From Craspedostauros australis (Eukaryota): 55,712 bases of DNA. The position numbers and the translations under genes were made by a program. The DNA lies in the NCBI GenBank assembly GCA_030167865.1, contig JALAGF010006362.1, forward strand, positions 1-55,712. The letters are read 5' to 3'. The first letter of the stretch is position 1; the number at the start of each line of letters is the position of its first letter. Positions 15,201 to 53,429 of the stretch are shown here, one piece after another. Under the pieces are notes generated by a model. It was not told the origin of the DNA. It searched no databases and saw nothing but the letters and a program-made list of their open reading frames with translations.

Positions 15201-18200
15201 CCGTAACAACGCGCTGCATGTAGTTGAGGATAGACATTCGATAAAAGTCCATGGCCCTGTAGTGGTTGCGGATACCCTGTTCTCCACGCACAATGAACTT
15301 ACTTTGCAGGTTCGTATCCGTGAGCTGATTCAACCGTTCCGTCAACATCTCCAACGCGCCTTGATGGCTTTCCAAAATTGTGAGCGTGCTTGGGTCGTGT
15401 CGTCGAGCGTACGTCGCGACGTAGGAATGCTTCAAGAACCGCCGCGCGTCCACCAACACCAACATAGCGCTCAAGGCCGTGGACCTGGCAGCACTGCCGT
15501 GACCATCTTCTTCTTCTTCTTCGTCGTCGTCGGCGTTCATGTCATGGTCATCCTTCGCATCTGCGTTGGGAAGTGAAGAGAGCTGACCCATCTCAACCTC
15601 CATGTGATCGGCATGGCCTTGTAAATCGAGGATCTGCTCCGACACAAAGGCCTCTGCTTGGTTGTGCGAGTCGTACCGATCCGATGCGAACAGAGCCCAG
15701 CGTTTATCGCTCGCTTCACTGTCCGCCTTCCCGCCCATGTCCTGCAACGGATCGTAACGATGGCACACATGATCTTCGGAATGGCGACGCAGCTTGGACA
15801 GGCACAGCCAGCAGAACTGCGTGCCGCAATTTTCGCACACCATGTGGTTGCATCCCTGGCTCTTCTCAATTGGGACCTGGCAGCCCGGACATGGCTTGGC
15901 GTGTTTCTTGATCCACAGATCCGACGACTTGAACAATCGATTCCATTCAACGAAATCGGCGCATGCTGCTGGCTGGTGCGGTTCGTTCCCGCAATCGAAA
16001 CAGAAAGATGTCTTGCATTGCGTGCAGGTGACACCAGTGGCAGTGCCCCTGCTGCTTGATTTGGAAGAAGCTGTTGGCGTTGCGCACGTCGCGACCATGG
16101 TGCAATCCGGACCTGGGCACTGCCTGTGCATCGAACTTCTCTGCAAGAACAGCTCAAAGAAGGAACGGTCCCAAGCAAGCTTCATCTTCGGGTTGTGAGT
16201 CGCCATTTCGGTTGGAGTCATGCGCCGGGGACAATTGTGATGTGGGCACGTGGCTTGCAGAAGTTTGGAATGGCCGTCATGCGCCAACGAAGCGATGTAC
16301 TCCGCCGTGCAGGATGTGCAAAAGACATGGTCGCAGTTGGAGATACCAACACGAGGTGTGCTGTGGGTGTTATCCGTGATGTCATCGTAGCAGATTCCAC
16401 ATACAGGGGTGTCAGGGGCAGCCTCCTGGGCCTCAAGTTGTATGTTTGCATCATCTAATTCGACACCGCATGCTGCCAATGCAGCAGAGGCATCACCCAC
16501 GGCGTAAGCTCCCTTCAGTTCACGAACGGAATATTCATTATCGTGCAACAATAACTTGGCCGCATCCAACGGTATGCGATACGTCCGTGCAACATCATCG
16601 CATAGCGATTGCAGTTCCATCTTCAGCATCATGGCATCGCTTTCTACCATCGTGTTGAAGAACTCTGCCTTGCGCATGCACAGCGTCCTCTGCTTCAGCC
16701 TCTTCTGCACTTCGGCGATGGATGGCCCGAGCTTGCGAATGATGCGTTGGACCACGAAATCGGGCTCGTCGTGCAGATAGCTGGCGAGGTAGCATGCTGC
16801 TTCCGGATCCATGCCATCCACGAGATCCGTGATCCAATGCGCCGCCACGATCTTGGCATCTCGTGACAGCGAACTTATGGCACCCAGCAGAGCCGGGAGA
16901 AGCGGGACGATCTTGTGCTGTCGCTGTCGCTGGTGTGTTGTGGTGGCGGTTCGTGCGCCTGTGGGAACGATGCCGAACTCCTTCTGGTACAGCGGCAGGA
17001 GCACCTCCAGGGTGTGCGCTACCGTCGGTTGCATGAAATCCTCCTCGAACATGGCGCATTTCAGTAGCAGCATCGGCATTTCAAAGATGCGCTGCTTATC
17101 GCCGAGGCACGCCGGGGCGAACGTCTGGAGTAGCCGGTGCGCGCACTTTCGGGCACGGACGGAATCGTCGCTGCGGAGGTGCCACTTCTTTTGGGACAGA
17201 CGGCGATCGTGCAGCAACCTGTCTACGTCCCTGCGACGGTCGAATGGAAGCGGGACACCCAGCGGATGTTGCCTGTTGCGATTGCGTTGGACCTGCCGTT
17301 CTATGCTGCTTTCGCCAGCATCAATGACGACGAGCAGAACGTGCCTGCATGCATCGATGGTGGCTCGAGAAACGAGGGACGTTATCGATGAGGTTGTATC
17401 GTTGTTGCCAATGATTCTATCGCCGCCGCAGTCACCGTCACTGGCAGCTGGCACGGATGCTTCGTCCGTATGAGGTTGTGAGTCAGGACTTGTGGATGGG
17501 GTTTGCTCCTTTTGAATTGTTGACTTTTGCCTTGGCCTCTTCTTCGCATCCTTGTGATGCGTCATGTTCCGCCTGGTTGGTCTCGTGTTGCTTGCGACCA
17601 CCTCGTTGTTTGGCGGTTCTCGTACAAAGTGCCGCACAAGAACGTCCATGAACTGCACCGCAAAGTACGCGCTCTTCTTGTTCTGCCCCGCGATGATCTT
17701 GATCAACCCCAACACCAGACGTATCGCGGCATCGTCGATGTTGCTGGGACTGCCATCGGCATTCCTTGCTGCCCATGGCTGCAGCATGATGCGCTCGGAC
17801 AAGAACTTCATCACCCGCGTCGCCACGCCAGATGGCAACGGTGCCCGCTGCAAGGAGTTGCGCTCATCCTCGCCAGGCAGCGGGCCCAGGACGCTCTCCC
17901 AAATGGGGGCGTTGCCCTGCTGGATGTGCTCGTCCAGGGCTTTGTTTTCGCCTCGGTGCCCGACGAGAAGGATGAGGAGGGAAGAGAGCAAGGGCATCGA
18001 ACACAGGAGACGCGTGGTTGGCATCTTGCGTGTGGGGATCTGCGTTGCATCGGGCCGCAGAGACAGTGGGATTGGCGATTCCGACTGAGAAACGAAGGAC
18101 ATCGCCAAGCTGCCGCGCACCGAGTCCGTCGCAGCAAGGAGGATGGAGAGTAGCAACGCCCGATCGTGGTTCCGGCCCTGCAAGAGGCATTGATTCGGAG

Positions 18201-19263
18201 GCCAGATGGCACATCGCAGACAAGCCAGCTGCAGCTGGCGCAGGTGCGACGGGTTGGCGGCGAGGTAGTCACGAGGTACGCAAGTTGTCATGCGCTGTTC
18301 TCCAAGATCCGACATCCCGCTGGCAGCATGCAATGATCGATGCCGATCCCACGAGTTCGGCCAGTAGAGCAGCACGTCCAACAGCAGATGGAACAGACCC
18401 CGGCCGTCCCTGGTCGCCGCCTCGACTGCTTCCGCAGAGATCAGCGACGGCCACGAGGCGAAGGGCTGCAAATGCCAGCCGAAATCATTCCCCGTCGTGG
18501 TCTTGTCGAAGTCGAAGGCGGGCCGGGAGCCGCACATGATTGAGATGGTTGCCAGCAGGATGGAACTCGCCATCTTCCAATGCGTGGCGGCCCTGAACTG
18601 CGTGTCGTTCTCCAGATCGCCATGCAACCTATCCACCAAACGAATTAAAACCGGGAACGTGGATTCTGGCATGGACTCCTCGTACAGCCTCGAGATGCCC
18701 AGCTGCAGGAATGACAGGATCCATGTCAACGAGACCCCACGGCTGCTCTCCACTATGCCCAACAACGACCGCGTCCAGTTGCAGCAGATCATCGTGGCAT
18801 CTCCACGAATGCGTTCCATCGCATGGTTGAGGATTCCGAAGGATTCCTCCCGTATCCTGGAGTGCAGGTTCCCTATTTCCTCTGATCCTCCGAAGTCGTG
18901 GTTCGGGAGCCTCGAAGTTGCGTGGGCAGCTGGTCGAGCGGCCGGTTGAGCCAGATCTGCCTGATTGTCATGATCCTGGCGGCCACGGTCGTTGTCGGTA
19001 ACTCCTGCTGCGAGAACGCCCGACGGCGCAGTGGAAGGCGACCTCCGAGCGTACGAGTGCGAATACATTGCGGATGTGTTTTCGTCGATCCTCCTCATGA
19101 TCTTCGGCAGCAAGTTCGTGAGAACGCGCGGCAGTCGATCATTCGGAGACTGCGCCAAACGGTTCCTCACACGTACGAGGGTCGCAAGCTCATCCTCCAG
19201 CTTCCCTCGCGGACTTGACGGCCCATCCTGCGACAACGATCTTGGGTTCATCATCAACCACAA
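15136..19263 (-). CDS. Ariadne-type RBR E3 ubiquitin ligase with a long ECM29-like helical N-terminus
   Basis: RING1 'CGICYDD...CDHVFCTSC...CPHHNC'; IBR 'CPGPDC...CTQCKTSFCFDCGNEPHQPAAC'; RING2 'KPCPGCQVPIEKSQGCNHMVCENCGTQFCWLC'; Ariadne tail 'ARRFLKHSYV...QGALEMLTERL'. Single 1375-aa ORF. Confidence 0.9.
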   Translation of the reverse strand: MWLMMNPRSLSQDGPSSPRGKLEDELATLVRVRNRLAQSPNDRLPRVLTNLLPKIMRRIDENTSAMYSHSYARRSPSTAPSGVLAAGVTDNDRGRQDHDNQADLAQPAARPAAHATSRLPNHDFGGSEEIGNLHSRIREESFGILNHAMERIRGDATMICCNWTRSLLGIVESSRGVSLTWILSFLQLGISRLYEESMPESTFPVLIRLVDRLHGDLENDTQFRAATHWKMASSILLATISIMCGSRPAFDFDKTTTGNDFGWHLQPFASWPSLISAEAVEAATRDGRGLFHLLLDVLLYWPNSWDRHRSLHAASGMSDLGEQRMTTCVPRDYLAANPSHLRQLQLACLRCAIWPPNQCLLQGRNHDRALLLSILLAATDSVRGSLAMSFVSQSESPIPLSLRPDATQIPTRKMPTTRLLCSMPLLSSLLILLVGHRGENKALDEHIQQGNAPIWESVLGPLPGEDERNSLQRAPLPSGVATRVMKFLSERIMLQPWAARNADGSPSNIDDAAIRLVLGLIKIIAGQNKKSAYFAVQFMDVLVRHFVREPPNNEVVASNTRPTRRNMTHHKDAKKRPRQKSTIQKEQTPSTSPDSQPHTDEASVPAASDGDCGGDRIIGNNDTTSSITSLVSRATIDACRHVLLVVIDAGESSIERQVQRNRNRQHPLGVPLPFDRRRDVDRLLHDRRLSQKKWHLRSDDSVRARKCAHRLLQTFAPACLGDKQRIFEMPMLLLKCAMFEEDFMQPTVAHTLEVLLPLYQKEFGIVPTGARTATTTHQRQRQHKIVPLLPALLGAISSLSRDAKIVAAHWITDLVDGMDPEAACYLASYLHDEPDFVVQRIIRKLGPSIAEVQKRLKQRTLCMRKAEFFNTMVESDAMMLKMELQSLCDDVARTYRIPLDAAKLLLHDNEYSVRELKGAYAVGDASAALAACGVELDDANIQLEAQEAAPDTPVCGICYDDITDNTHSTPRVGISNCDHVFCTSCTAEYIASLAHDGHSKLLQATCPHHNCPRRMTPTEMATHNPKMKLAWDRSFFELFLQRSSMHRQCPGPDCTMVATCATPTASSKSSSRGTATGVTCTQCKTSFCFDCGNEPHQPAACADFVEWNRLFKSSDLWIKKHAKPCPGCQVPIEKSQGCNHMVCENCGTQFCWLCLSKLRRHSEDHVCHRYDPLQDMGGKADSEASDKRWALFASDRYDSHNQAEAFVSEQILDLQGHADHMEVEMGQLSSLPNADAKDDHDMNADDDEEEEEDGHGSAARSTALSAMLVLVDARRFLKHSYVATYARRHDPSTLTILESHQGALEMLTERLNQLTDTNLQSKFIVRGEQGIRNHYRAMDFYRMSILNYMQRVVTVMNEMHHHHHHHHHEDGSGNQ

Positions 19264-20213
19264 CGCACTACGTGCAGATTAATATTATATTATGTGATGT
19301 TATGTGATGTTGTATAATATCTGTATTCGTATTTGTATTGTGCGACAGAGCAGTACGATCCAGAGAGAGGAGTCTCCCAGAGATCAGAATGGGGTGAAGT
19401 GCGACCACAACCCATCAGCACGGTGCTCTGTGGAGCGTTCTTGTTTGGGATCGTGTAGCACAAACGAACGCAAATTGCCTCCACCATCTCCTTCCGCGCA
19501 ACGTGCTTCTCCACGTCTTGGGTTTGATCTCGTTTGGTTGCGTTCGTGTGGGTCGACTCGATTTGTGTTCGTCCATCGAAGAACATCGTGCCAATCGGGC
19601 ATCACGACTCGAACGGGTCTCGAAACAATCCCTGGTTTGGATCCATTGAATCGAGTGTCGGATGCACATGTTTCATCCATGTGGCTTCGATGAAATTGTA
19701 TTCATGAACCAATGTTGTATAACCTGACTGGCGCTGCAGCGATAGCGGTTGCTGCTCACATTTTGAGGCAAACGATCATGAGGCGATTTGGCGAGAGACG
19801 CGGACAGGGAACAAAAGGACCACACAGAGAAGAAATGTCTTTTTTGTGGATTCTCTCAGCTGATGGCATCGCGTCACATCGCATGTCGTCTCGTCGTGCT
19901 GCACCATCACATGATCATCATGAATGATGGTCTGGTGGTCGGATCTCAAAGGGAACAGAGAGGATACAGGTGTGCATGCCCATCGTGTCAAGGACGAAGA
20001 CCCATCAACAAGTCATCCATCAGATCAATCATCAACCGAAGAGGAATGAACATCCAGATCAAACCTGTCATCAGTTCACAAAATCAAGCGACGCGCCGAT
20101 CATCGAATTGTGCAGCGCCTTCGACAACCCATCAGGTCCACCTTCTTCCCTTTCCATTGCATCCCAGCGCGTCTCATCCTCTTCCGAAGCTATCCATCAT
20201 CCATCCATCTACC

Positions 20214-23200
20214 ATGACATTGACAATGCAACGACTGACTACGATCCTTTTGCTGGCGTTCCTCGCACAGCCAGCATCCGCAGGCTTCTTCGATTTGGGC
20301 AAAAGGCAACAGGAAAGCGCCAGCAGCGATGACGCCGCTCCAACAAACGTCGGCATGATCAACGATGCGCGTGTCGCCGATGCCAACACCATCAGGGAAA
20401 ATCGTTTGCCGCCCTTCTTTGATCCATTCTTTGGCATCCCGGCACCCACCTCCGCGCCGACTGATGGGCCCACGGCATCACCAACCGGATCGCCAACCGC
20501 GATGCCCACGATGGCACCGACTGCGTACCCAACAACCCAACCCACTGCCTCGCCCACGAGGTTGCCCACGAGGACACCGACTGGGCTGCCAACTGTGTCG
20601 CCGACACGATCGCCTACCAGGGCGCCAAGCGCAGCACCAACAAGGGCGCCAACAGTATCTCCAACTGGATTGCCAACTGGATTGCCAACTGGATTGCCAA
20701 CTGGATTGCCAACTGGAGTCCCAACGGAGCTTGCTCTCGAACCACCGACAGCAGTACCAACCCGACCTCCAACCGTGCATCCCACTGCTTTCCCAACCGC
20801 ATTTCCAACCGCAACGCCAACGGTGCATCCCACGGCTTTCCCAACTGCATTTCCAACCGCATCTCCAACCGCAACGCCAACGGTGCATCCCACTGCTTTC
20901 CCAACCGCATTTCCAACCGCAACGCCAACGGTGCATCCCACGGCTTTCCCAACCGCAACGCCAATCGCTTCGCCAACAATGCAACCAACAGCAGCACCAT
21001 CCGAGGGTACCGGACCAAGAATTGGAATTACGACCCCGAGCCCTGTGGCAGTCCAAACATCCTCTCCAACCAGTCGCCGCACCATGCTCCCAACCAGCGT
21101 TCCGACTACAACTGTGACGGGCATTCCAACCGCACAGCCTTCTCGCGGAGCAACTCGCAACCCCACTCATGCGCCAACTGTTTCCCCAAATGCAAGTGCA
21201 ACCGCAAATCCTACCTCGAGCCCAACCAAGGGAGCAATCAACACCAGTGGACCAACGGCTGCACCAACAGCCAAGCAAACCTTGATGCCAACGACAACGC
21301 CAACCATGACGCCCACGGCCAGACCCACAACACGACCATCACTCGCACCGACCATCGCGCCAACTAGGCTCCCAACTGCCTCTCCGACGCGAAGCGCCAC
21401 CGCCAGCCCGACCCATGCGCATTCCACGATGCCGACTGTTTCGCGCACCGATGTTCCGTCGACAATGCCAAGCAGCGCAACCCACATGCCAACTCTGTCG
21501 CCAACATGGATGCCAGCTTCGTCACAGACCCACATGCCAACGAACAAGCCATCGGCGTTGCATTCCGTGCATCCATCCGTGTCGCCATCATCACTGCCAA
21601 CCAGACAACCAACAGCAACACCAACCTCCGGCCCCACCACAGCACCGACGGTGTCTCCAACAGCATGGCCCACGTCGAGACCAACGATGGTGCCAACGAC
21701 TGCGCCAACAACTGCGCCAACAACTGCGCCAACAGCGCCAAGTAATGAGGGCGTGACAATCTTGACGAATGCCCCAACGGCAACGCCATCAGCAATGCCC
21801 ACAAGCCAACCAACGGTCGCACCAACTGCATACCCAACGGTGGTGCCAACGGTCCTTCCAACTGCGCATCCAACCACATCCCCAACCACCGCACCAACTG
21901 AATACCCGACAGCACACCCCACAGCATACCCCACTGCCACCCCCACCCGGGCCTCACCTGATGTGGTGACAACTGGTCTGCCGACATCACAGCCAGCTCA
22001 TGCCCCCACAAGCGCACCAACAAACAACAAAATTACCGGAGAGCCCACCGGATCAACCAGCGCAAGCAGAACAAGCAGCCCAACGCAGATGCCGACAGTC
22101 TCTCTCACAACACAACCAACATCGAGACCGACAGCAGCACCAACCGCAGGAACAATTGCTGGACCAACCGCAGCACCGACAGCAGCACCAACCGCAACAC
22201 CGACAGCAGCTCCCACCGCGGCACCAACCGCAGGACCAGCCGCAGGACCAACCGCAAGACCAACCACAGGACCAACCGCAGGATCAACCGCTGCACTAAC
22301 TGCAGGACCGACAGCTGGCCCACCCACAGGATCAACCGCAGCACCGACAGCAGCACCGACAGCAGCACCGACAGCAGGACCGACAGCAGGCCCAGCCGCA
22401 GGACCAACCGCAGGACCAACCGCAGGACCAACCGCAGGATCAACCGCAGGACCAACAGCAGGACCGACAACAGGCCCAGCCGCAACACCCGCCGCAGGAC
22501 CAACCACAGGACCAACCACAGGACCAACCACAGGACCAACCACAGGACCAACCACAGGACCAACCACAGGACCAACCACAGAACCAACCACAGGACCAAC
22601 ATCGGACGCCACCAAGGGACCCACTGGTTCACCATCGATGCCATTTGACCGCACACTCTTTCCAACTGCAGCCCCCACCGTTGCACCAACGGCAAATGTC
22701 GCACCAGGTCAAACTTCGTCTCCCACGACGCTCCCCAATGTGTCAACGACTGCAACACCAACGGCATCGCCAATGGCATCACCAACAGCATCACCAACAG
22801 CATCACCAACAGCATCACCAACAGCATCACCAACAGCATCGCCAACAGCACCGACTTTCCCGACATCTGCGCCAACCCTTCAACATGGTGGCATGCCAAC
22901 AGCATCGCCACAAGCATCAGCTTCGTACACACCAACTGTAATCCCGACCAGTTCACCAACCAGCGGGCTAACCAGCGGGCTAACCAGCGGACCAACCAGC
23001 GGACCAACCAGCGGACCAACCAGCGCACCAACCAGCGGACCAACCAGCGGACCAACCAGCGGACCAACCAGCAGGCCAACAGAATTGTTTGTGCCTCGGG
23101 TCCCCTTGCCGCCAACAGCATCGCCAACCGCAGCTCCAACCACAGCCCCAACAGCAGCTCCTACTTTACGGGTTGTCAATGATTCCACCAGCGAACCATC

Positions 23201-25604
23201 AGTGTCACCAGCCGACCCATTGGTGCCAACAACTTCGCCAACGGCATCACCAACAGCAGCACCAACTGCAGCTCCTACATCACGGGTTGTCAATGATTCC
23301 ACCAGCGAACCATCAGTGTCACCAGCCGACCCATTCGTGCCAACAACTTCGCCAACGGCATCACCAACAGCAGCACCAACCGCAGTCCCAACCACAGTCC
23401 CAACAGCAGCTCCAACAGCAGCTCCAACATCACGGGTTGTCAATGATTCCACCAGCGAACCATCAGTGTCACCAGCCGACCCATCGGTGCCAACAACTTC
23501 GCCAACTGCTGCTCCCACCGCAGTCCCAACCGCTGCTCCTACATCACAGGTTGCCAACGATTTCACCAGTGCACCATCAGTGTCACCAACCGACCCTTTG
23601 GTGCCAACAACTTCACCAACAGCAGCACCAACAGCAGCACCAACTGCAACAGCAACACCAACTGCAACAACAACCATGTCAGGAACATCCCAGTCAACTG
23701 TAGCACCGACTGCGGCACCGACTGCAGCACCCACATCGTCGCCGACAGCAACATACGCTACCACAGCGCCAACCAGCAACAACGATGTTTCGCTCACTGC
23801 ATCTCCAGACGCATCTGAACTTGAAGCACCAACCGGCATGCCGACCAGCATACCGACCAGTTCGCCAACCAGCAACAACGATGTTTCGCTCACTGCGTCT
23901 CCACACGCATCTGAACTGGAAGCACCAACCAGCATGCCGACCAGCATGCCGACCAGTTCGCCAACCGGTGCACAAACTGATTCTCCTGTGTCCAGCGTTC
24001 CGGTAACGCCGACGGCTGCACCAACGTCAGGACCAACAGCAACGATTGGATCAACAACAGCACCAACCACATCCCCAACAACGAGTCCAACTGGAATGCC
24101 GACGTCCTCAAACGCAATCGGTGATAATCCAACAGCATCCAATACAGTGTCGCCGACCAGCACACCCACCAACGCACCGACAAGTCTGCCAACCGGCGAG
24201 CCAACAATTTCACCAACAGCAGCTCCAACTGCGACCTCGCACACTGCCAACCCAACCGCTGGCGCAACTGCCGCACCCACTTCTGCGCCCACATCATCGC
24301 CAACAACTTCTGCGCCGACGGGATCACCGACAACTACGACAGTTGCCACAGCAACAGCGATGCCAACATCGGGAACTGTCACAACTCCTTCACTGTTGCG
24401 ACGATCCGCGCACCGATTCGAATGGGGGCGAGTGGCCATCAGCAGTGTTTCTTGTTCCCACACACTGCCAAGGGCATACATTGACTGTCAGGGCGACGGC
24501 GAGCTTGAAATCATCAACAGGGAACACGCTGCGTGCGAGACGCAAGGCTCCAACCTCGCAATGTGCGACAGCACCAACGAATCCGAAGATGCCACCGTTG
24601 AATTCACATGCACCGGGACTGTCGATAACGACTTGATCGGAAGGGCCCGCATCTTCAAGAGTCAGGCCACATGCGACAACAACGGATCCATTGACCTTGA
24701 TGGCGATGCCATCATGTACTCCAATCTTGGTCGCATGTGCAAGAACGGCGACGAGAATGACAACGGCGTCGGTGACGACACCTTCTCCCTGCGCACCGAC
24801 TACTCCTGCGGTTCATCCCGCTCTGTGAGGAACGCAGACGGCGTCATGTTGTGTGCCAGCGCCGTTCGTCCTCAGGATGGCGACAGCGCAACGCCCTTCA
24901 TTGTCGATGGCATCACCCTCACCAACCCTGATGATGCGACGCGGTGTTCCGAGCAGTTGAACATCCCCGACACAACCGAGCGACGCAACCAGTTGGATGA
25001 GCATCAACTGACATCGACCAACTTCGTGGCCTGGACCTACACCGACTATGGTTTCAAGTGCACCTGGGAGGCACCGTCTCTGACATTGACTTGCGGCGAT
25101 GATGACAACCAAGGCATCATCGACATGAAGCAGGCCTTCGACTTTTGTACGCAGGATGGGTCAAACAAGATCGTCTGCGACAACCCATCTCCAACCTCGA
25201 ACAGCGGGCGTCTCAACCATTTCATGGAGGTGACGTGCTCTGGTGACACCGAACAGTCGATGGATCTCCATGCCAGCACGCCACAAACTCCGTCATCGTC
25301 GACGTCATCCGCAGCAGCAACGGAGGATGACGGAAGCGTGTGCGAATCGAATGGTGTCGCCGTGCAAGGCGTGTCCATCGCGAGGCAATGTGACGACGAG
25401 CACTGGACATCCAGATCGTACTGCGACAACTCAGATCAATACTTCGAACCAAGCCGCGGACTGCCGCTCTGCTTCGATGGCTTCCACTGTGAAGATGAAG
25501 ATGGATGTGACGATGTTTCTGTGAGCAATGTATCCGTCACAGCGACGAACATCGAACAAGGAACCTGCGTGCTTGGAGTGAGCAGGTCATCCATCGGTTT
25601 CTAG
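20214..25604 (+). CDS. Large secreted mucin-like PT-repeat glycoprotein with a Cys-rich C-terminal region
   Basis: Signal peptide 'MTLTMQRLTTILLLAFLAQPASAG' at 20214 (ORF open from 19788), about 1300 aa of PTxxPT repeats, then about 400 aa rich in Cys and Asp. Confidence 0.85.
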   Translation: MTLTMQRLTTILLLAFLAQPASAGFFDLGKRQQESASSDDAAPTNVGMINDARVADANTIRENRLPPFFDPFFGIPAPTSAPTDGPTASPTGSPTAMPTMAPTAYPTTQPTASPTRLPTRTPTGLPTVSPTRSPTRAPSAAPTRAPTVSPTGLPTGLPTGLPTGLPTGVPTELALEPPTAVPTRPPTVHPTAFPTAFPTATPTVHPTAFPTAFPTASPTATPTVHPTAFPTAFPTATPTVHPTAFPTATPIASPTMQPTAAPSEGTGPRIGITTPSPVAVQTSSPTSRRTMLPTSVPTTTVTGIPTAQPSRGATRNPTHAPTVSPNASATANPTSSPTKGAINTSGPTAAPTAKQTLMPTTTPTMTPTARPTTRPSLAPTIAPTRLPTASPTRSATASPTHAHSTMPTVSRTDVPSTMPSSATHMPTLSPTWMPASSQTHMPTNKPSALHSVHPSVSPSSLPTRQPTATPTSGPTTAPTVSPTAWPTSRPTMVPTTAPTTAPTTAPTAPSNEGVTILTNAPTATPSAMPTSQPTVAPTAYPTVVPTVLPTAHPTTSPTTAPTEYPTAHPTAYPTATPTRASPDVVTTGLPTSQPAHAPTSAPTNNKITGEPTGSTSASRTSSPTQMPTVSLTTQPTSRPTAAPTAGTIAGPTAAPTAAPTATPTAAPTAAPTAGPAAGPTARPTTGPTAGSTAALTAGPTAGPPTGSTAAPTAAPTAAPTAGPTAGPAAGPTAGPTAGPTAGSTAGPTAGPTTGPAATPAAGPTTGPTTGPTTGPTTGPTTGPTTGPTTEPTTGPTSDATKGPTGSPSMPFDRTLFPTAAPTVAPTANVAPGQTSSPTTLPNVSTTATPTASPMASPTASPTASPTASPTASPTASPTAPTFPTSAPTLQHGGMPTASPQASASYTPTVIPTSSPTSGLTSGLTSGPTSGPTSGPTSAPTSGPTSGPTSGPTSRPTELFVPRVPLPPTASPTAAPTTAPTAAPTLRVVNDSTSEPSVSPADPLVPTTSPTASPTAAPTAAPTSRVVNDSTSEPSVSPADPFVPTTSPTASPTAAPTAVPTTVPTAAPTAAPTSRVVNDSTSEPSVSPADPSVPTTSPTAAPTAVPTAAPTSQVANDFTSAPSVSPTDPLVPTTSPTAAPTAAPTATATPTATTTMSGTSQSTVAPTAAPTAAPTSSPTATYATTAPTSNNDVSLTASPDASELEAPTGMPTSIPTSSPTSNNDVSLTASPHASELEAPTSMPTSMPTSSPTGAQTDSPVSSVPVTPTAAPTSGPTATIGSTTAPTTSPTTSPTGMPTSSNAIGDNPTASNTVSPTSTPTNAPTSLPTGEPTISPTAAPTATSHTANPTAGATAAPTSAPTSSPTTSAPTGSPTTTTVATATAMPTSGTVTTPSLLRRSAHRFEWGRVAISSVSCSHTLPRAYIDCQGDGELEIINREHAACETQGSNLAMCDSTNESEDATVEFTCTGTVDNDLIGRARIFKSQATCDNNGSIDLDGDAIMYSNLGRMCKNGDENDNGVGDDTFSLRTDYSCGSSRSVRNADGVMLCASAVRPQDGDSATPFIVDGITLTNPDDATRCSEQLNIPDTTERRNQLDEHQLTSTNFVAWTYTDYGFKCTWEAPSLTLTCGDDDNQGIIDMKQAFDFCTQDGSNKIVCDNPSPTSNSGRLNHFMEVTCSGDTEQSMDLHASTPQTPSSSTSSAAATEDDGSVCESNGVAVQGVSIARQCDDEHWTSRSYCDNSDQYFEPSRGLPLCFDGFHCEDEDGCDDVSVSNVSVTATNIEQGTCVLGVSRSSIGF
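20440..24390 (+). repeat. Coding tandem-repeat region: 12-nt PTxx units plus larger 96-150 nt duplications
   Basis: Examples: (CCAACTGGATTG)n near 20661, (GGACCAACCACA)n near 22500, (GCATCACCAACA)n near 22776. 'RVVNDSTSEPSVSPADP' blocks start at 23169, 23283 and 23433, with a diverged copy at 23547. Confidence 0.92.
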
Positions 25605-43840: not shown

Positions 43841-44357
43841 TGGGCAGCATCCAGAGCAGAGTAATGGCGATTGTCGACACAAGCCTTGTCTCTAGGTCGT
43901 GTGGTCGTTATACCAAGACTTACTCGTCTGGCAGAGTGCTCTTGGGAGATACAATGGCATGTGCGATCTACTGAGCATGATGAGAGTGGACGCAGACCAT
44001 GGGACACCACATCGTCGATAGTCACAGGACAGCAGCATTGTTGTCTGTTTGTGTTTGTCCAGCAATCAGAATAGGTACTAAGGTAAACGTATACCTAAAC
44101 GTCTCGATATATAGATATACCACATATTGAGTATCATTGTTGATGTCACCAAGAACAATCGTATCTTTTGGCGGAGAACACTTCGTTTTGCTTCGATTTC
44201 CGCGCCAGTGACGAGGACAACAACAGTGTGGATGATGACGGCAGCAACCTCCAACATGACACCCCACATGACAACGACAACGATGAAGTTGATGGTGATG
44301 GTGACAGCGATGATGATGGAACCCATAATCCTCGTGATGGTCTTGAGAACGTCGACG

Positions 44358-45617
44358 ATGACTTGCTTTCAAATGGGCAGATGCTGCCTCGCACTTCTGT
44401 GTGCGTGCGTATTCATGATACATCAGCAAGCGCATGCGTGGAGTCATCACTCCGTTCGACGCCAGCATCAATACCAGCAACATCAGCAGCTGATACACAA
44501 TGGAATATCCGCAGGCGTACCCAGGCTGCATGCCCATGAAGAAGGTGTTGGCCAAGCTCAACCACTTCAAGGACGCTCAACGTCAACACCTTCGTCACCA
44601 TTGAATGCAGCGAAGCCAACAGCAAAGCCAACAGCACCACCCAGCAGACGACATGTCCTCAGCACCGCAGTGTCATTGACCGCAGCACTGGCATCTGGCG
44701 CATTGCCGTTCGGTAGTGGCAGCACTGCCGCTGCCGTCGATTTGGAGTACTTCACGCAATCGGGACGCAAGACCTTCGATCCCAGAGCCACCATCACCGT
44801 TCAGATCGAATCCCCGACGGACAAGCTCGGCCTGCAGCTGGCCGACGCGACGTTGCGGCAGCAACCGATCGTGTACATCGTGGGGACCGCCCCATTCCGA
44901 TCCTCCGCGCAACTCCAGCCCGGCCTCATCCTGCTGGGATACGATTCTGCGGTGCAGGTGGTGCAGCGGATCCAGTCGGGTCCTTGGCCCGTGACGTTCA
45001 CCTTCTTCAATCTGGCCGCTGGCGGCGACGCCTTCAATGACATGGGACAGACCATGGTGACGCCGATGGATGCGCTGAAGCTGGCCAAGCAGACGGAAGG
45101 CAGCGCTGCAGCTGACAGCACCCTCACGCGCATCCCGGCGTCCTCCAACGGCAGCAGCAGCGTCACCACCAAGCCAGCCACTGCAACCACCGGCACAGAA
45201 TTCTCCATAGAGACCATCGAGCGACCGAACCCCAACAAATGCCTGATCCAAACGCGCAAGGGCGACCTGCTGGAGATCGAGTACGAAGCCGCTGTTCTGA
45301 CCGGCACTACGGCATCCCAAGTGTACGACTCCTCCCTGAAGCGCGGCACAGGACAACCATACCAAATGGTGCTGGGCAGCGGCGACATGATCCCCGGTGT
45401 CGATCTGGCTCTGTACGAGATGTGCCCCGGCGAGACGCGCGTCGTCACCATACCGCCACAGTTGGGATACGGCCCACGCGCCAGCAAGCTGTTTCGCATC
45501 CCCTCCAATTCCAGCTTGCGGTGGACCATCAAGCTGATCTCAATCGAGGGGATCGTCCGCGAAGATAGCAACGATGAATTCAGTCGCGACGATCGCGAGC
45601 AGCGGGCGTTGTATTGA
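44358..45617 (+). CDS. FKBP-type peptidyl-prolyl isomerase, probably thylakoid lumen, with a PDZ-like middle domain
   Basis: FKBP motifs 'TRKGDLLEIEY', 'VYDSS', 'LGSGDMIPGVDLALYEMCPGETRVVTIPPQLGYG', 'IPSNSSL'. Signal peptide ending AHA-W, then twin-Arg 'SRRHVL...AAA'. Start at 44358 or 44373. Confidence 0.85.
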   Translation: MTCFQMGRCCLALLCACVFMIHQQAHAWSHHSVRRQHQYQQHQQLIHNGISAGVPRLHAHEEGVGQAQPLQGRSTSTPSSPLNAAKPTAKPTAPPSRRHVLSTAVSLTAALASGALPFGSGSTAAAVDLEYFTQSGRKTFDPRATITVQIESPTDKLGLQLADATLRQQPIVYIVGTAPFRSSAQLQPGLILLGYDSAVQVVQRIQSGPWPVTFTFFNLAAGGDAFNDMGQTMVTPMDALKLAKQTEGSAAADSTLTRIPASSNGSSSVTTKPATATTGTEFSIETIERPNPNKCLIQTRKGDLLEIEYEAAVLTGTTASQVYDSSLKRGTGQPYQMVLGSGDMIPGVDLALYEMCPGETRVVTIPPQLGYGPRASKLFRIPSNSSLRWTIKLISIEGIVREDSNDEFSRDDREQRALY

Positions 45618-46079: not shown

Positions 46080-49000
46080 ATGGTAAGCATGTCCATGAGC
46101 TTTGCGTGTTGCGTTGTCGGTTGCGTTTTGTCGGCAGCAAAGCCGTACGGTGCTTGAACCACGGAACGCTGATGCGAATAGCAAGGAGAGCGAAGGTTGG
46201 CTTCATTGCTGATCCATCTGCCATGTGAGGCCATGCACTCACTCACTCAATCACTCGTTGCAACACTCTGCACCGCACAGCCCAACATCAAACGGCGCTT
46301 CGCCGATGATGACCCATCCTCCGGAGACGATGATGACGAAGAAGAGGAGGAGCCGCAGTTTTACCGTGGCGGCGGCAAGTCTTTCCGCATGCCTGGTGGC
46401 AAGGCCTTTCGTCCACCGCCTGCGTACGATGATGACGAGGACGATGATGAGGACGACGATGACGACGATGAAGACGACAGCGACGAAGAGGAAGAGGAGG
46501 AAGCCCCGTCGCAGCCAGCCTACCGCATGGGTGGTGGCAAGCAGCTCAGACCGCCAGGAGGCAAGCAGCTGCGTCCACCTCCATCGCAGCAGGATGATGA
46601 TGATGACGATGATGACGACGACGATGATGATGAGGATGACGAGCTGAAGGATGATGAGCCAATCCGCCCGGTGCAGCGCGGCGGAGGCAAGGCGTTGATG
46701 CGCATGCGCGCACCGCAGGAGGACGACGATAGCTCCAGCGGCGACGAAGACGATGATGACGACGAGGAGGAGGAAGAAGAAGAGGAAGAAAAGCCGAAGG
46801 CACCCGTCCAGACCCAGCGCATCGTTTCGCGTGGTGGTGGCAAGTCCCTCATGAGGATGCAGGCTCCGGAGGAAGACGAGGACGACGACGATGATGATGA
46901 CGACGAATCGGAAGAAGAGGAGGAGGAACCACAGCGTCAGGTGGTGCGTCCCGTGGTGCGAGGTGGTGGCAAGGCTCTCTCCCGCATGACGGCGGCACGT
47001 GGCGGTGGCAAGCAACTGCGTCCACCTGCTCGGGACGATGATGAAGACGAAGACAACGATGATGACGACGACGACGATGATGATGACGAGGAGGAAGAGG
47101 AGGAGGAACAAGAAAAGCCACGCCCAGTTCAGGTGGTGCGTCGAGGAGGCGGCAAGTCCTTGATGCGCATGCAGGCACCTTCCGAAGACGAGGAAGAGGA
47201 AGAATCGGACGAAGAGGAGGAGGAAGACGCAAAACCAGCCACTGTCAAGCCATCACCACCTGACACTGTTGGAACGTCCATCACGACTGCAACCACAGCG
47301 CCGCAGAAGCCCGCTGCAGCATCCACAAGCAGCATCAGCACCCAGAAGCCAAAGATCCAGCCATCGCCACAGGGAGGCAAGCAACTACGTCGAGCACCGC
47401 CACCGAAGGATGATGATGACGACGACGACGACGAAGACCTCGAGTTGGACGACGACGAAGAAGAGGAAGAGGAGGGCCCAGATGATGATGACGATGATGA
47501 TGAAGACTTCAACGATGAGATGGATGTCGACTCGGACGATGGAGGCAAGGTTGCGACCAAGGCAACCAAGAAGGCCCCGTGAGTATCTTCATTGTGTGTT
47601 GGAGATTCAAGGGGATTTGCGTCGCTGCGTCGCTGCGTCATTGTGATGCTGTGATGCTGTGATGTTCATTTGAGGTCTGCGTTGCAAGTGCATAGTCGAA
47701 GCAGTCGTTCACTTCACTTTGCTCCAATTCGCGAATGTCACAATCACTTCTCACAGTAATACGTACATCCTCCACTTGTCCTCATTGTGTTCCAACGCAC
47801 CTCCCCCATTCACAAACACAGACCCAAAAAGAAGGCCCCTGCGAAGAAGGCTCCCACACGACGTGCATCGACAAAGGTCGTCGAGTCTGACGCCATGGAA
47901 GAATCTGATGATGACGAAGACGATGATGATGACGACGATGACTTTGATCATGACGATGAGGAGGAAGAAGAGGCTATCGGTGATGCGGATGATGACGACG
48001 ACGATGATGACATGGATGAATCATCTGACGAAGAGATGGAATTGGACATGGACAAGTTTGACACGCAAACGCTTGTCAAAGATGATGAAGACCAAAAGTA
48101 TCTCGATAGTCTCACCGAAGTGGAACGTGAGGCCATCTTGGCGGATCGGTTCGAAAAGCGCAAGGCTGCATGGGATATGAAGAAGGCCTTGAAGGATGCC
48201 AAGTGAGTTGCGAGCGTGTCATGTCATGCAAAGCTGCTCTGCGCTGTGTTGTGCTTCATCGCGTCCATTTCCATGATGTTGTCCCTCTTTGTGCGCCACC
48301 ATAGCATCTCACAGATGCGTGCAAGAACCACAACTTGCGCCCGTGACGACGATGCCACCGACACTTGCCTTGCTGCATATCGCCAACGTTCGCTCACATT
48401 CTTCTTTCCATGCTATCCCATTGCATTCATGTAGGCGAAAACAACGGGAGGAGAAATCCGCCGCTGCCAAGGTTGACAAGAAACGCAAGGCTCCAGCCAG
48501 CAAGAAGGCAGCAGCGCCGGCCAAGCAAAGCGACGAGGCGGCCAAGAAGAAAATCAAGGACGACGAAGAGCTGGCATTGTCGCTGTCAAGCAAGAGAGAA
48601 TCCGGCCGCAACAAGGATGCCACTGGCAAGAAGGCCAGCAAGCTCAAGGCCTTGGCTGCTTTGCGAGAGGAACGCAAGAAGGCTATGGATTCCAAGGATG
48701 ACTCGGAGGACAGTGACTCCGACTTTGGCGGCGACGACGATGATTCTGACGACGAGCTTGATGATGCCAATGCACTCAAGCCATGGCAGAAGCAGCAGAG
48801 TTCCAAATCATCGCAACTCAACAAGCTGCAAACATCCGACGACGAGCTGGATGACGGCGACGACGACGACAGGGGCTTTGACGATGATCACGACTCTGGC
48901 GATCCCAGCCAACCCGATTCGGGCGACGTCGAGGCCGATCTCCTGTCCTACCAGAAGATCACATTGCCGCGACGACGTCTCGGGCGCTGGTGCAACGAGC

Positions 49001-50106
49001 CGTTCTTCAAAGATGCTGTCAACGATTGCTACGTCAAGTTGTTCATCGGCGTCAACGAGGATGGCAAACGCTGCTACCGTCTGTGCAGAATCGTGGATGT
49101 TTCGACCCACCCAGCGACGTACTCCCTGCCACCAGTGAAAGGGCAGAAGCCCATCGCGACCGATAAGATGCTGCGACTGAAGTTCGGAAAGAACGAGAAG
49201 GAATTCCCCATCCGGTTGGTCTCCGATGCCAAGGTGTCGTCGGAGGACATTGGCCAGTTCGTGACGGCCATGAAGGCGGTCCGCCAATCGGTGCTCACCA
49301 AGCGCGAGGCCAATCGAGTTCGGCGCGTGCAGGACCAGCTGGTGAACAACTACGTGTACACCACGCAGGACATCGAACGCAACCTCCGCGAGCGCAAGAA
49401 GAAAGGCAAGACCGTCTCCAATTTGGGAACGGAAAAGACGCGCGTCAGCATCGCCACGCAGGCTGCCCGGGACCGCGTGGAGGACCTGAAGAATCGCATC
49501 GCCGTGGAAGAAACGAAACCGGACTCGCTGGAACTCCCCAATCTGGAGAAGCTCCTGGACAAGGCCGAGAAGGACTTCGAGGAGCGCAAGGAGGAGCAGC
49601 GCCTCGTGGTGGCAAAGATGAAGAACCGCAAGCAGGCGCTGGCCGGGCGCTCCAAGGACCAGAAGTGGGCCAAGGTGAACCAGCGTGCCCGCCAGGCCAA
49701 TCAGCAGGCCGATATGGTCGCGTACAAGGAGAAGGAGGACGAGACTGTCGGCAAGGACGGCGGCAAGCCCAAGTTCAACCCGTACGCTCGCCGAAAGGTG
49801 AAGCCCAAGATCCTGTGGGAGGTCGGTCAGAAGGACAACGCGGGGCAGGAACCAGACGAAGCGAAGAAGGAAGCGGCGGATTCTAAATCCGGCAAGGGCG
49901 CGCCGCAGACGATCACTCCCAATCTGATCCTCGAACACCATGAAAAGGCAGCAGCGCTGAGCCAATCCCACCAGTTCAACATCGAGGATTCGTTGCTGAC
50001 GCTTTCATCTGGGAGCAGCAGCAAGAAGGGCCGGGATGCCAAACGCGCGCGCAAGGGCATCAGCCTGAAGGAGTACTTCGAGCGCAAGGAGGCAGGGACC
50101 TTGTAG
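46080..50106 (+). CDS. RTF1: RTF1 (PAF1 complex, Plus3 domain); exons 46080..46082, 46281..47578, 47822..48202, 48435..50106 (1117 aa)
   Basis: HMD-like 'DDEDQKYLDSLTEVEREAILADR'; Plus3 'ITLPRRRLGRWCNEPFFKDAVNDCYVKLFIG...YRLCRIVDV...LRLKFGKNEKEFPIRLVSD'; 'FNPYARRK'. Three canonical GT-AG introns join the exons in frame (3354 nt). Confidence 0.88.
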
Positions 50107-51503
50107 TGTGGCGTGGCAAAACCCCGCAGTACAACATGGGAGTGCATGATGTGACGCGACGTGACGTGATGTGACAAGGTACATATGGCATACTCTACAT
50201 CGCATCACAAGCATCAGTCCTGCCAGTCTCTCATGTTGTCCACCATAACACTCTACTCGTATCATACCATTCAAATGATACTCAATGGATACACAACATC
50301 AATTTTATTGGACACAATCGAGAACTTGATGAGCTCCTCGTGTGTTGGAACAGCCGCTTGATGGTTGAGTTGGGCAGGTGAAGAGAAATGGAGTATGGTC
50401 GTTCGATGCAGAATAGTTTGCTCGGGTACTGCACTACGATCTAGTGCGCAACAAACAGACCCCCAAAAATTGGCGATATTTGGCTGCAGTTAGTTGGCCA
50501 CAGATTTTGGACCCGTTTGTCCCAATCTCTGACTTGATGCTGTAGACGATCAATCCAACATATCTTCACATCAATGTAAACTCAAGAGCCAGGGCTATCC
50601 AGGCAAGTAATCACATTACCTTGTTGTTGTCACTATCTTGGTGATCTTGACATGTTTGTTGACCCCCTTGGCATGATTTTCACTGCCTGATGACAGACGG
50701 ACCACCTTTTCATTGGATATGTTGGTATACGGTCGAAGGCAAGACAGAGCAGCAAATGAACCCCTGTTCACAGCCTCAGCAGAGACAACAGAGACGAGTC
50801 ATGATAACCTCACATCACACACACACACACACATACACATACACACACACACTACTCGTATCGTCTCCCGATCATCACAGGATATGTTTAGCTACACATA
50901 GGATTCTATGTGCCTGGTAGGATCTTGCCTCTTTCTTCAAGGATTTCGACTCTCCATCTTTGAAGTCTCCGGACTTAACGGTCTTTGGCTCATTCTGCAC
51001 AAGAGATATCATTACAGAGCCCCCTCGTCGAGTTGGTCACAGCCATGTGGTCTACCTATGTATTGTTTGAGTGCGATGGTGTGTTGGTATGCTTGCTTTT
51101 GGTGGTCCCATGGCAGTCGGAGTCATCTTCGGCCAATTCGATCAGCAATCATGGCGGCAAGTTTGGAGAATTCTGGTTCCATTGGTTGCGTCATCATGAC
51201 GTCAGCGAAAGTTGGAACACTTCCCCGGAACAACTGGGGAGGACCAACCACAAGCCAACCGCATTCGTGAATCATGGAGTGCTGCACGGATCGTATCAGT
51301 GCTTGCTGAGCAAGATAGCAGCAGCCACCAAACTTTAAGATGATATATGTCAATGCTATATGATGCCACAATGGCAAAATGAGTACAGGAAGATGCATAT
51401 GAGCGAAGTCCGGAGAGTTTGGCTATGGTTGATGCTGTTATTGCCCTGTTTTGGTTTGGGACTTACGTAGAAAGTGAACCACAATCTACGCAGCTCTGTT
51501 TTG

Positions 51504-53429
51504 TCATCCAAACGTATCCAAAAATCGCCAAAAACGTTGGCAACAGGTATTTGTTGCAGTCGCTAGCCTCGATTCAAGCAAAGCCAAGGTCTTCACATCA
51601 TGGCCTGCCTTCTGTGCACACTTCAATGCCGTATTGCCAGCTTGGTTCCACACAGGAACACATCAATCTCTTCCAACGTCATCAGATACTCGACCACCGT
51701 CACCAGACCAATCTTCACCGCACTGTGAAGGACTGTGTCTCCGCCATTGTTCATCATGTTCACATCCACCGTCACGTTGCTTGATTCAATCAGCAGCTTG
51801 ATCTTCTCCAGACAGAAATGGCCGTAGACGTAGATTTCGCCAATACTTCCGGTATCGCTTCCGGCATCAGTGTCGGCGCAGCAGATGCAATGCAATGGAG
51901 TATCACCATTACAATTCTGAAGTGTTGCATCCACTGAGTCATGTCCCACCAACTGCTGAAGGGTGGACATTTCACTGTCCTTGTTCATGCATGCAAGATG
52001 GAGAAGCGTGTTGCCAGCACGATTCTGGATGTTTGCAATTGGTTTGGCCTCTTCTATCAATCGTTTGGTGATGACTGTATCTCCCACACGATTGTTGAGA
52101 TGGGAGAGATCGCTGAGGTTGGTGGTGGGGATGAGTTGCTGTTGGATGAACTCGAAGAGGTGGGTGAGTCTGGTGGCGTCACCCAACGGAAAGAAAACGC
52201 CTCTGTGGAAGGCGAGGTGCACAGGTGTGTCACCGTCATTGTTCTGGGTGTTGAAGCTGCTGTTGGTCTTCGACGACTGGAGCAGGTAATCAATGGCGTC
52301 GTGTTCCTGATGCTCGCATGCAACATGGAGAGGTGTATTCCCCCACCTGTTTTGAATCTTGAATAATTCATCGATACTCAACTCGCTGTTGCTGTTGTCT
52401 TTGTTGTTGTCATTGTTGGGTTGGTATTCTTCCAGCAACTGCTTCAAGCAAGGTAAGAGGTCAGAGTCACCGTAAAAGCAAAGGCGATGCAATGGTGTGT
52501 CACTGTCATTGTTTTGGGTGCGAATGTGGTTGTCTGTGTCGATTTTGCCGCAATGGACCAGATACGCAATCATATCCTCAGAACCACGCAGGCGTGTGTA
52601 ACAAGCCTGGTGGAGAAGTGTATCACCATCACTGTTGCAAATGTTGAGATTGACATTGTCACTGATATCATCTGATTCCACCAGGTATCGAACGCAGCTG
52701 ATCTCCATCCTCCGACATGCTGCATACAAAGGCGTGTCACCTTTGTTGTTCTGCTTGTTGATGTTGGCAGCGGCATCAACTTGGGGACATTGCACCAGGT
52801 ACTTCAGCACATCGATGTGTCCTTCTTCGCAGGCATGGTGGAGTAAGCTGTTGCCATCGGTATCATCCATGATGAAGTGGATTCGATCAGATTCCATCAA
52901 GTACTCAACAAGATTTCTCTTTCCGCTCCTGCAAGCGAGATGGAGCAATGTCTGCCCTTTGTTGTTTCGGGCATTGACATCCACATCGCTTCGATCAGAT
53001 TGCATGAAGTACTCAATGGTATCTCTGTGTCCACGCTTGGATGCAATGTGAATTGGCGTATTGCCGTCCCAGTCTGGAATGTTGAAATCCACGTGAACGC
53101 GGTCGGATTCCATCAGATACTTCACGATATCCGTGTATCCTTTACAGCAAGCACGATGGATTGCTGTCATTCCAAAGTGATCCTGGAGGTTGACATCCAC
53201 CTTGATTCGATCAGACTCCACCAAGTACTTCACAATGGCCATGTTTCCCTGATGGGAAGCACGATGGAGTGGTGTATCTCTAAGTTCGTGCACAATACCG
53301 CAAAGCGTGCCCTCCTTGCATGATTCGACCAAGGTCTGCACCAATGCCAAGTTGTTCCAATCGCATGCTTTGTACAATCGCACAAGCCATCTGTCATTGG
53401 GGTCATCACTGTTTCCATTCCAGTTTCAT
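51504..53429 (-). pseudogene. Ankyrin-repeat protein gene with apparent frameshifts near both ends (pseudogene or assembly error)
   Basis: More than 10 ankyrin repeats (DTPLHRA, GMTAIHRA, GNTPIHIA, GQTLLHLA...) in ORF 51623..53383. The ORF has no in-frame ATG upstream of the first repeat. A further ankyrin motif 'NQAGNTALKCAQKAGH' continues in another frame from 51650. Confidence 0.6.

Follow-up and report, generated by a model that had tools for sequence, protein, structure and literature searches.

A conserved lysine-centred motif array in the polyacidic N-terminal arm of diatom RTF1

Why should the RTF1 gene of a pennate diatom encode, ahead of its recognizable domains, several hundred residues in which long acidic tracts alternate with copies of one short Gly-Gly-Lys motif? 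The question is raised by a 55,712-nucleotide stretch of DNA from Craspedostauros australis (contig JALAGF010006362.1), analyzed at its full length and referred to below as the window. RTF1, a subunit of the Paf1 elongation complex, links transcription elongation to H2B ubiquitylation and to the methyl marks that depend on H2B ubiquitylation. An initial annotation of the window took the extension for a multivalent imitation of the histone H3 tail. We show here that the region is a disordered, polyanionic, diatom-wide arm N-terminal to the histone modification domain (HMD), bearing about ten copies of a motif in which Gly-Lys is invariant and the second residue after the lysine is nearly always Leu. 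We tentatively favor, with somewhat less than even confidence, its reading as a platform of many lysine-centred sites for docking or modification, carried on a polyanionic arm of RTF1 that probably contacts histones; the sequence comparisons do not support H3 mimicry, the main proposal of the initial annotation.

The identity of the gene is clear: it encodes RTF1 of a pennate diatom. The Pfam Plus-3 family (PF03126) is recognized at residues 173-279 of P0003, the exon 4 protein, with an E value of 8e-24 and 84.7 bits (cut-off 27). Human RTF1 chains match exon 4 at 1e-8 to 2e-15 and Plus3 chains at 2e-10 to 2e-15, and residues 11-371 of P0003 are collinear with residues 225-549 of 6ted_R (E 1.2e-8), an alignment that extends beyond Plus3 on its C-terminal side. 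Residues 73-112 of P0002, the exon 3 protein, weakly match the yeast Rtf1 HMD chains 5emx and 5e8b (E 0.011-0.013), and the diatom homologues hardly vary in the HMD-like segment LDSL.E.EREAIL..RFEK. These Plus3 and HMD matches uphold the initial annotation in assigning exon 2 to RTF1. Like yeast and human RTF1, the window protein possesses a Plus3 domain; it also has a putative, weakly matching HMD-like segment, and its post-HMD region aligns with human residues 222-546. It departs from them ahead of the HMD, where it carries more than 500 residues; human RTF1 has about 220 ahead of the aligned region, and yeast Rtf1 about 60 ahead of the HMD.

The gene comprises four exons on the plus strand, with a spliced coding sequence of 3354 nucleotides that encodes 1117 amino acids. 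Exon 1 (46080..46082) consists of the start codon ATG alone and is followed by the donor GTAAGC of intron 1 (46083..46280, GT..AG). Exon 2 (46281..47578), bordered by AG at 46279-46280 and by GTGAGT starting at 47579, contributes 432 codons plus 2 bases and encodes the polyacidic disordered arm with its motif array; positions 46281-47576 translate on the plus strand into 432 residues free of stops. Intron 2 (47579..47821, GTGAGT..CAG) leads to exon 3 (47822..48202), which encodes a K/A/P-rich segment, an acidic tract and the first part of the putative HMD (from about 48039). Intron 3 (48203..48434, GTGAGT..TAG) leads to exon 4 (48435..50106), which supplies the rest of the HMD-like region (to about 48681), the Plus3 domain (48952-49272), the C-terminal region and the stop codon. 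The separate 3-base start exon is a correction that lies beyond the range covered by the initial annotation. Methionine followed by PNIKRRFADDDPS corresponds to the N-termini MPNIKRRF.DDDPS of P0006 (a complete transcript open reading frame (ORF) from Pseudo-nitzschia delicatissima), P0014 (Cylindrotheca closterium) and P0015 (a Bacillariaceae genome bin). The unspliced frame from the ATG at 46080 is a short ORF, and the splicing of intron 1 is backed by homology.

We join exon 2 to exon 3 because the logic of the reading frame, the canonical splice sites and the collinear complete transcripts of relatives agree. Exon 2 has 1298 bases, not a multiple of 3, so that a transcript lacking it would read exon 3 into a stop at 47890; were intron 2 retained, a stop would come at 47580-47582, directly after exon 2. 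Exons 3 and 4 carry on the reading frame of exon 2, and complete transcripts of related diatoms have the same layout as the window gene. Two side observations concern intron 2: its retention would yield a stand-alone acidic, GGK-bearing protein, and it contains, at 47618-47664, two perfect 8-base tandem repeats, TGCGTCGC x2.8 and TGTGATGC x2.9. The antisense ORFs over exon 2 (minus strand, 46254-47252, 46523-46936 and 47132-47665) mirror its GA-rich codons and have no Pfam family above cut-off.

Could the motif be a by-product of such a biased composition? The 432 residues of exon 2 include 101 D, 69 E, 40 P, 33 G, 28 R and 25 K, with Asp and Glu making up 39%; over the entire pre-HMD region (533 residues) the D/E content is 41% and the net charge about -154. 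The translation contains exactly the 11 GGK sites between D/E runs that had been listed from the sequence: RGGGKSFR, MPGGKAFR, MGGGKQLR, PPGGKQLR, RGGGKALMR, RGGGKSLMR (twice), RGGGKALSR, AARGGGKQLR, QGGKQLRR and DGGKVATKATKKA. Shuffling gives a mean of 0.14 and a maximum of 3 GGK (20,000 shuffles), and shuffling the non-acidic residues with the D/E positions fixed gives a mean of 0.33 and a maximum of 4; for GGKx[LF], 10 are observed in exon 2 against 0.018 expected. Chance does not account for the GGK count in exon 2. Ten of the 11 sites share a single motif: G-G-K-x-L/F, then R, M or P. Its consensus is GGKQLR[R/P]P, and it has a Met-rich subtype, GGK[S/A]LMRM.

All copies lie on the plus strand. 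Copies 1 (GGKSFRMP, 46371..46394, aligned with copies in P0014, P0015 and P0006) and 2 (GGKAFRPP, 46395..46418) are followed by 3 and 4 (both GGKQLRPP, 46533..46556 and 46557..46580). Copy 5 (GGKALMRM, 46683..46706) is of the Met-rich subtype, with IRPVQR ahead, and its surroundings PVQRGGGK.L.RMR are identical in four pennates. Copies 6 (GGKSLMRM, 46836..46859), 7 (GGKALSRM, 46965..46988), 8 (GGKQLRPP, 47004..47027) and 9 (GGKSLMRM, 47148..47171) were, like copies 2 to 4, placed by translation and alignment. Copy 10 (GGKQLRRA, 47373..47396) aligns with GKQLRR of P0006 and is missing in P0014 and P0015. The eleventh GGK (GGKVATKATKKAP, 47541..47578) is not a motif copy: L/F is missing at +2, the alignment is gapped here in P0014, P0015 and P0006, and the site opens a K/A/P-rich basic segment that continues into exon 3. 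Between copies 9 and 10 runs a Ser/Thr/Pro/Ala-rich stretch (AKPATVKPSPPDTVGTSITTATTAPQKPAAASTSSISTQKPKIQPSP, 47229-47372), also a gap in the three closest relatives.

Tandem Repeats Finder reports in exon 2 imperfect D/E-codon repeats of period 3 to period 21 (61-100% matches) and no long unit repeat; recent tandem expansion is therefore not suggested. An AlphaFold2 model built on a 17-row alignment gives exon 2 a mean predicted local distance difference test score (pLDDT) of 44.2, with 0 residues at or above 70 and no helix or strand, which is consistent with a fully disordered arm.

The array is not peculiar to this genome. Searches with exon 4 yielded six long RTF1 proteins and 192 shorter ones, and among the 120 of these 192 that were listed many are exon-4-only gene calls. 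Every homologue whose sequence extends 150 residues or more ahead of the HMD anchor (23/23) carries GKx[LFIM] copies, 1-14 each, low counts reflecting N-terminally truncated models; their pre-HMD regions are 19-46% D/E with net charges of -15 to -90. The array-bearing taxa that can be named span the diatom tree: Corethron pennatum (P0161), Aulacoseira subarctica (cluster of P0009), Stephanocyclus meneghinianus (P0114), Detonula confervacea (cluster of P0116), Attheya (cluster of P0108), Phaeodactylum tricornutum (XP_002182864.1 / B7G787, 1031 aa, cluster of P0004), Cylindrotheca closterium (P0014) and Pseudo-nitzschia delicatissima (P0006). When the window protein is compared with P0006, P0014 and P0015, every copy is matched in position by one of its own subtype, save copy 10, for which P0006 alone offers a match. 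Among these four pennates 53 of 88 motif columns (60%) are identical, as against 46 of 183 acidic columns (25%) and 34 of 200 others. The comparison of motif with acidic spacers that the initial annotation had proposed thus comes out in favor of the motif. At the level of aligned sequences, the motif and above all its lysine are kept across diatoms, and the acidic spacers retain their composition alone. The extension of about 430 residues described in the initial annotation is real, and it carries a multivalent, conserved motif array between acidic tracts.

An exhaustive phmmer search with exon 2 against 1.84 billion representatives returned 49 proteins at E<=0.001. A Pfam scan of 19 of the 49 found Plus3 in 6. 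Many of the short matches carry the motif and resemble N-terminal fragments, and some match on acidic tracts alone; a similar array is present in two of the non-Plus3 proteins that were read through. The ESM Atlas gave no usable match. As an observation apart, the K/A/P-rich pre-HMD segment contains an AT-hook-like core ([RP]GRP[RKPAG]) in 9 of the 23 homologues (P0004, P0005, P0007, P0069, P0073, P0100, P0103, P0114 and P0116); in the window protein this segment (47541-47890) reads KKAPTRRAS, without GRP.

Which residues of the motif does selection hold? Position frequencies were taken over 129 sites from 20 N-termini, chosen on GGK alone. Position -3 is G in 62%; +1 is Q in 57% and S in 19%; +2 is L in 85% and F in 9%; +3 is R in 60%; +4 is R in 32%, P in 23% and M in 12%; and +5 is P in 47% and M in 20%. 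Two subtypes recur across diatoms, GGKQLR[R/P]P and GGK[S/A/M]L..M, the latter prevailing in Corethron (GGKSLRNMYQP) and Aulacoseira, and the first copies of Bacillariaceae read GGKGFGKQLR. When sites are instead chosen by their flanks alone (G?x[LF]R), the lysine position is K in 116, N in 1 and R in 0, although these N-termini overall contain 558 K and 492 R. The lysine is the most constrained residue of the motif. Because K never changes to R, the constraint argues that lysine as such is modified or recognized, whether through acetylation, methylation or ubiquitylation or by a pocket specific for Lys; it does not argue for an arginine anchor or for a contact through charge. Compared by eye, none of the PIP-box, PY-NLS, AT-hook, cyclin RxL and TFIIS-N-domain motifs fits the invariant positions.

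This constraint bears directly on the simplest account of the arm, namely that it has no partner at all and is a charge-patterned, low-complexity disordered region, a polyanion with small basic islands that tunes the solubility, condensate partitioning or nuclear retention of the Paf1 complex, the motif being kept for bulk physicochemical reasons. Disorder is predicted throughout, the spacers vary freely in length and sequence yet stay acidic, and phmmer also finds unrelated acidic-tract proteins, for example nucleoplasmin-like ones. Bulk charge, however, cannot explain K to R changes in 0 of 117 sites, L/F at +2 in 94%, or positional orthology across genera, and charges of +2 or +3 on the basic islands are too small to offset acidic tracts of -15 to -25. 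We consider this account unlikely.

A second account places the specificity in the arginine. The Leu-Arg of GGKQLR would be an arginine anchor in the H2A-H2B acidic patch, and the acidic tracts would hold the DNA-binding surfaces of histones, making the arm a multivalent nucleosome binder. Disordered regions that bind histones typically contain long D/E tracts. Among the +2/+3 pairs of the motif L-R is the most frequent, and the LMRMR subtype resembles the M-R-L-R pattern of LANA. The Rtf1 HMD itself crosslinks to or contacts the nucleosome acidic patch (PMC6895269), and the residues that engage this patch are M6-R7-L8-R9 in LANA and Y537, L539 and R540 in foamy-virus Gag (PMC9040877). An anchoring Arg should be invariant, but a downstream Arg stands at +3 in 118 of 188 copies and anywhere from +3 to +5 in 148 (79%), leaving 40 (21%) without one while the lysine does not vary. 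The resemblance is also weak, since anchor motifs have little consensus beyond the Arg (PMC10606924), and occupancy of the acidic patch could compete with Bre1 or the HMD. A nucleosome-binding array of this kind thus appears to us improbable.

The upstream arginine fares worse. R directly precedes GGGK in 6 of the 10 copies of the window protein, in line with an RGG-box array, its Arg methylated by PRMTs or binding RNA. Across diatoms, position -4 is R in only 29-32% of copies and P in 27-29%, and many copies read SPAGGK or PPGGK. With -4 Arg in only about 30% of copies, the RGG/PRMT idea of the initial annotation is weak, and we regard it as very unlikely.

Does the invariant lysine sit in a histone-tail context? 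From 186 true copies we derived a 12-column matrix, left out its K column, and used it to score every lysine of reference proteins. Genes for H2A, H2B, H3 and H4 came from metagenome contigs and those for ubiquitin from viral contigs, all Pfam-confirmed. True copies have a median of 22.1 bits and a 5th percentile of 8.6 bits. H4K8 (GGKGL) scores 6.4 bits, H3K14 -2.2 bits, H2A K37 -5.3 bits, H3K18 -8.2 bits and ubiquitin K48 (GKQL) -12.4 bits; an earlier matrix built from GGK sites gave H3K36 -7.1 bits. No background lysine reaches 8.6 bits (0/5390), in a background that includes histone genes and so has a heavier upper tail.

The likeness to the H3 tail, and to H3K14 in particular, on which the initial annotation was built does not survive this comparison: H3K14 falls at -2.2 bits against the true-copy median of 22.1, and H4K8 scores higher. 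As an explanation, H3 mimicry equates GGK with H3K14 and KQL with H3K18-L20, and has the copies serve the writers and readers of H3K14, GCN5 for one, as substrates or decoys. Part of the evidence agrees with it. GGK with Arg at +3 (60% of copies) matches G12-G13-K14..R17 of H3, the lysine is invariant, and H3K14 is the second-best histone or ubiquitin lysine, with only 0.4% of the 5390 background lysines as high; the motif sites of the arm also lie in a region predicted to be disordered (mean pLDDT 44.2), as a tail mimic requires. Accepted mimics, moreover, match a tail by as few as four residues, as in ARKT of G9a and ARSK of NS1 (PMC6028506). The likeness nevertheless goes no further than GGK with R at +3. 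At +2, the flanking position that carries most information, L/F (94% of the 129 GGK sites) gives way to Pro in H3, and GCN5 reads G-K-x-P. The most H3-like element of all, GGKVATKATKKAP, is unconserved, being gapped in the three closest relatives and part of the separate K/A/P-rich segment, and Corethron copies read GGKxLxxMY.P, few of them with Arg at +3. Nor did the PDB searches return a histone: the 12 matches of exon 2 at E<=10 all fall on acidic tracts, in TFIIA, BAP1, nucleophosmin and others, and a 13-column motif profile gave 0 matches at E<=10, HMMER filters being harsh on such short profiles. We consider mimicry of H3 quite unlikely. By the four-residue standard of accepted mimics, mimicry may be possible, with no positive support for H3 specifically; on these scores the array is a motif of its own, slightly closer to the GGKGL context of H4 than to H3. 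What stands of the earlier proposal is its general part, a target of lysine writers or readers, which fits the invariant lysine (K 116, N 1, R 0); the likeness to H3K14 does not stand.

A broader variant is a pseudo-histone-tail array, in which some ten sites would be acetylated, methylated, ubiquitylated or read by the machinery of the 'GK' lysines of H4 or H3, or by that of Rad6. The arm would then be a moving, multivalent decoy or recruitment platform, with the modification state of the lysines gating contact between acidic tracts and histones as transcription proceeds; we assign this variant a low probability. The Rad6 connection has also a ubiquitin-related form. Rad6 prefers K48, and G-K-Q-L reads as G47-K48-Q49-L50 of ubiquitin, so that the copies might serve as pseudo-acceptor or decoy sites for Rad6 recruited by the HMD. 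FAGKQLEDGR is indeed found in the Pfam-confirmed ubiquitin ORFs, the lysine is invariant, and the HMD binds Rad6 (PMC10235976). We demote this likeness because, with its flanks, ubiquitin K48 scores -12.4 bits, a level that 4.8% of background lysines reach; moreover, with roughly 30 well-known lysine sites considered, chance alone should produce a match of four residues. A ubiquitin-like acceptor array therefore strikes us as highly improbable.

We return to the lysine-centred platform. On this reading the arm would be a multivalent platform borne by the elongating polymerase. Acidic tracts of this kind hold histones in chaperone tails. Here they would make weak, chaperone-like electrostatic contacts with histones displaced near the site of HMD and Rad6 action; the tracts adjoin the HMD, the domain that works with Rad6 at the nucleosome face (PMC10235976, PMC6895269). 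The lysine of each motif, set in Gly-Gly-Lys-x-Leu, would be recognized by a partner specific for lysine, be it an enzyme of acetyl, methyl or ubiquitin modification or a reader. Ten copies could provide avidity or a tunable switch of charge and affinity. The motif would act as a generic Gly-Lys histone-tail context, closest to H4K8, and not as a copy of the H3 tail.

Several points weigh against this reading. Even the best histone context, H4K8 at 6.4 bits, lies under the 5th percentile of true copies (8.6 bits). A structural contact, and not modification, could explain why the lysine is invariant, and so negative an arm could act mainly as a polyanion, its motifs serving an unrelated role such as import or turnover. 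The label 'diatom-specific' would extend only as far as the named matches, all of which come from diatoms. In RNA of C. australis (one run, contigs, share 0.07) no contig spans any junction, including that of exons 2 and 3; contigs match 49839-50200 at 100% identity, and the other matches are spurious, on D/E-codon repeats.

The surroundings of the gene are those of ordinary eukaryotic genes (FKBP, ankyrin, SDR, IBR-type E3, WD40), with no histone gene among the neighbors in the window. An FKBP-type isomerase (44115-45614, plus strand) lies just upstream of RTF1 and an ankyrin-repeat protein (51626-53425, minus strand) downstream; farther off are an IBR (RBR-type E3) protein (15139-19278, minus strand) and a 1940-codon open frame (19782-25601, plus strand) matching the PT-repeat PF04886 at 2e-57. 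Since the opposite strand and other frames of this last interval are also open, it is a large low-complexity gene or region.

What, then, does the arm add to the understanding of RTF1? In yeast and mouse the N-terminus of Rtf1 recruits chromatin partners, bearing an LLALA/LLSLA box that binds the CHCT domain of Chd1 (PMC12390759). At the same position diatoms bear a different device, a MPNIKRRF start followed by the GGKxL array. By eye, an acidic, Leu-spaced stretch in the HMD linker of exon 4 (DDEELALSLS, 48556-48585; DEELARKLAG in homologues) resembles the LLALA/LLSLA box; it may be a Chd1-binding box in another position, or a coincidence. The array has been retained from a time before Corethron, Aulacoseira and the pennates diverged, and conservation this deep argues that it has a specific partner in the chromatin biology of diatoms. 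Judged by its sequence, the arm is probably best described as a new form of a known protein, RTF1, recognizable by its Plus3 domain and its collinearity with human RTF1, with a weakly matching HMD. Literature on Rtf1 in diatoms yielded no description of the array, supplementary tables of post-translational modifications being beyond reach, and the Phaeodactylum accessions B7G787, XP_002182864 and EEC45600 are not mentioned in the searchable literature, supplements excepted. Phaeodactylum tricornutum, a model diatom, is genetically tractable and bears the same array, and the question is directly testable there.

How does the diatom arm compare with known systems? A similar array occurs in Cvel_4347 of the alveolate Chromera velia (P0130, 2338 aa, uncharacterized), which phmmer matches to exon 2 at E 1e-31. 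It contains at least 19 tandem units of GGGKVARRPTGFVRGP, each followed by a D/E tract, and shares G-G-G-K-x-small/hydrophobic-R-R-P with the diatom copies. Unlike RTF1 it has no Plus3 and no Pfam family, Ala rather than Leu at +2 and an additional conserved PTGFVRGP, and its sites score 2.7-8.3 bits, under true copies. Its repeats (at least 19 units of GPRGATSFATGTKSGGGKVARRPTGFVRGPIPT plus D/E tract over residues ~1000-2338) are near-identical, which suggests recent expansion; its N-terminus shows a Cys/His pattern that is RING-like by eye. In P0166, a metagenome protein of 1051 aa, residues ~140-300 hold four units GGK.F(R)NVSTGKQ[LF].P.P plus an acidic tract, and 3 of the 4 units score 11-16.5 bits, inside the range of true RTF1 copies. 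Its C-terminal part is unrelated, with a weak C1-like zinc-finger match (E 0.001, below cut-off), and the motif pair may be a portable module.

The accepted histone mimics, ARKT of G9a, ARSK of influenza NS1 and the H4-like N-terminus of the yellow fever virus core, resemble the arm in that a non-histone protein presents, within a disordered region, a short histone-like motif around a lysine, with about four residues identical to the tail, as in GGKxL against H4K8; NS1 ARSK binds Paf1 and Chd1 (PMC6028506). They differ in that the mimic occurs once, in a virus or in the enzyme itself, whereas the diatom motif occurs 7-14 times in an endogenous elongation protein, and GGKQLR[R/P]P fits no tail site within the true-copy range. 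Arginine-anchor peptides (LANA of Kaposi's sarcoma-associated herpesvirus, the chromatin-binding sequence of foamy virus Gag, IE1 of cytomegalovirus) are likewise short, disordered and basic, with Leu or Met beside Arg; in diatoms the Arg is present in 79% of copies and the Lys is invariant, in a motif set within long acidic tracts. A further parallel is offered by nuclear histone chaperones, nucleoplasmin-like proteins being among the weak phmmer matches to exon 2. The N-terminus of nucleolin, NPM1 and Nopp140 interleave long D/E tracts with short basic islands that are K/P/A-rich and variable. The diatom arm shares this alternation, and its island is a single, sharply conserved motif built around an invariant lysine.

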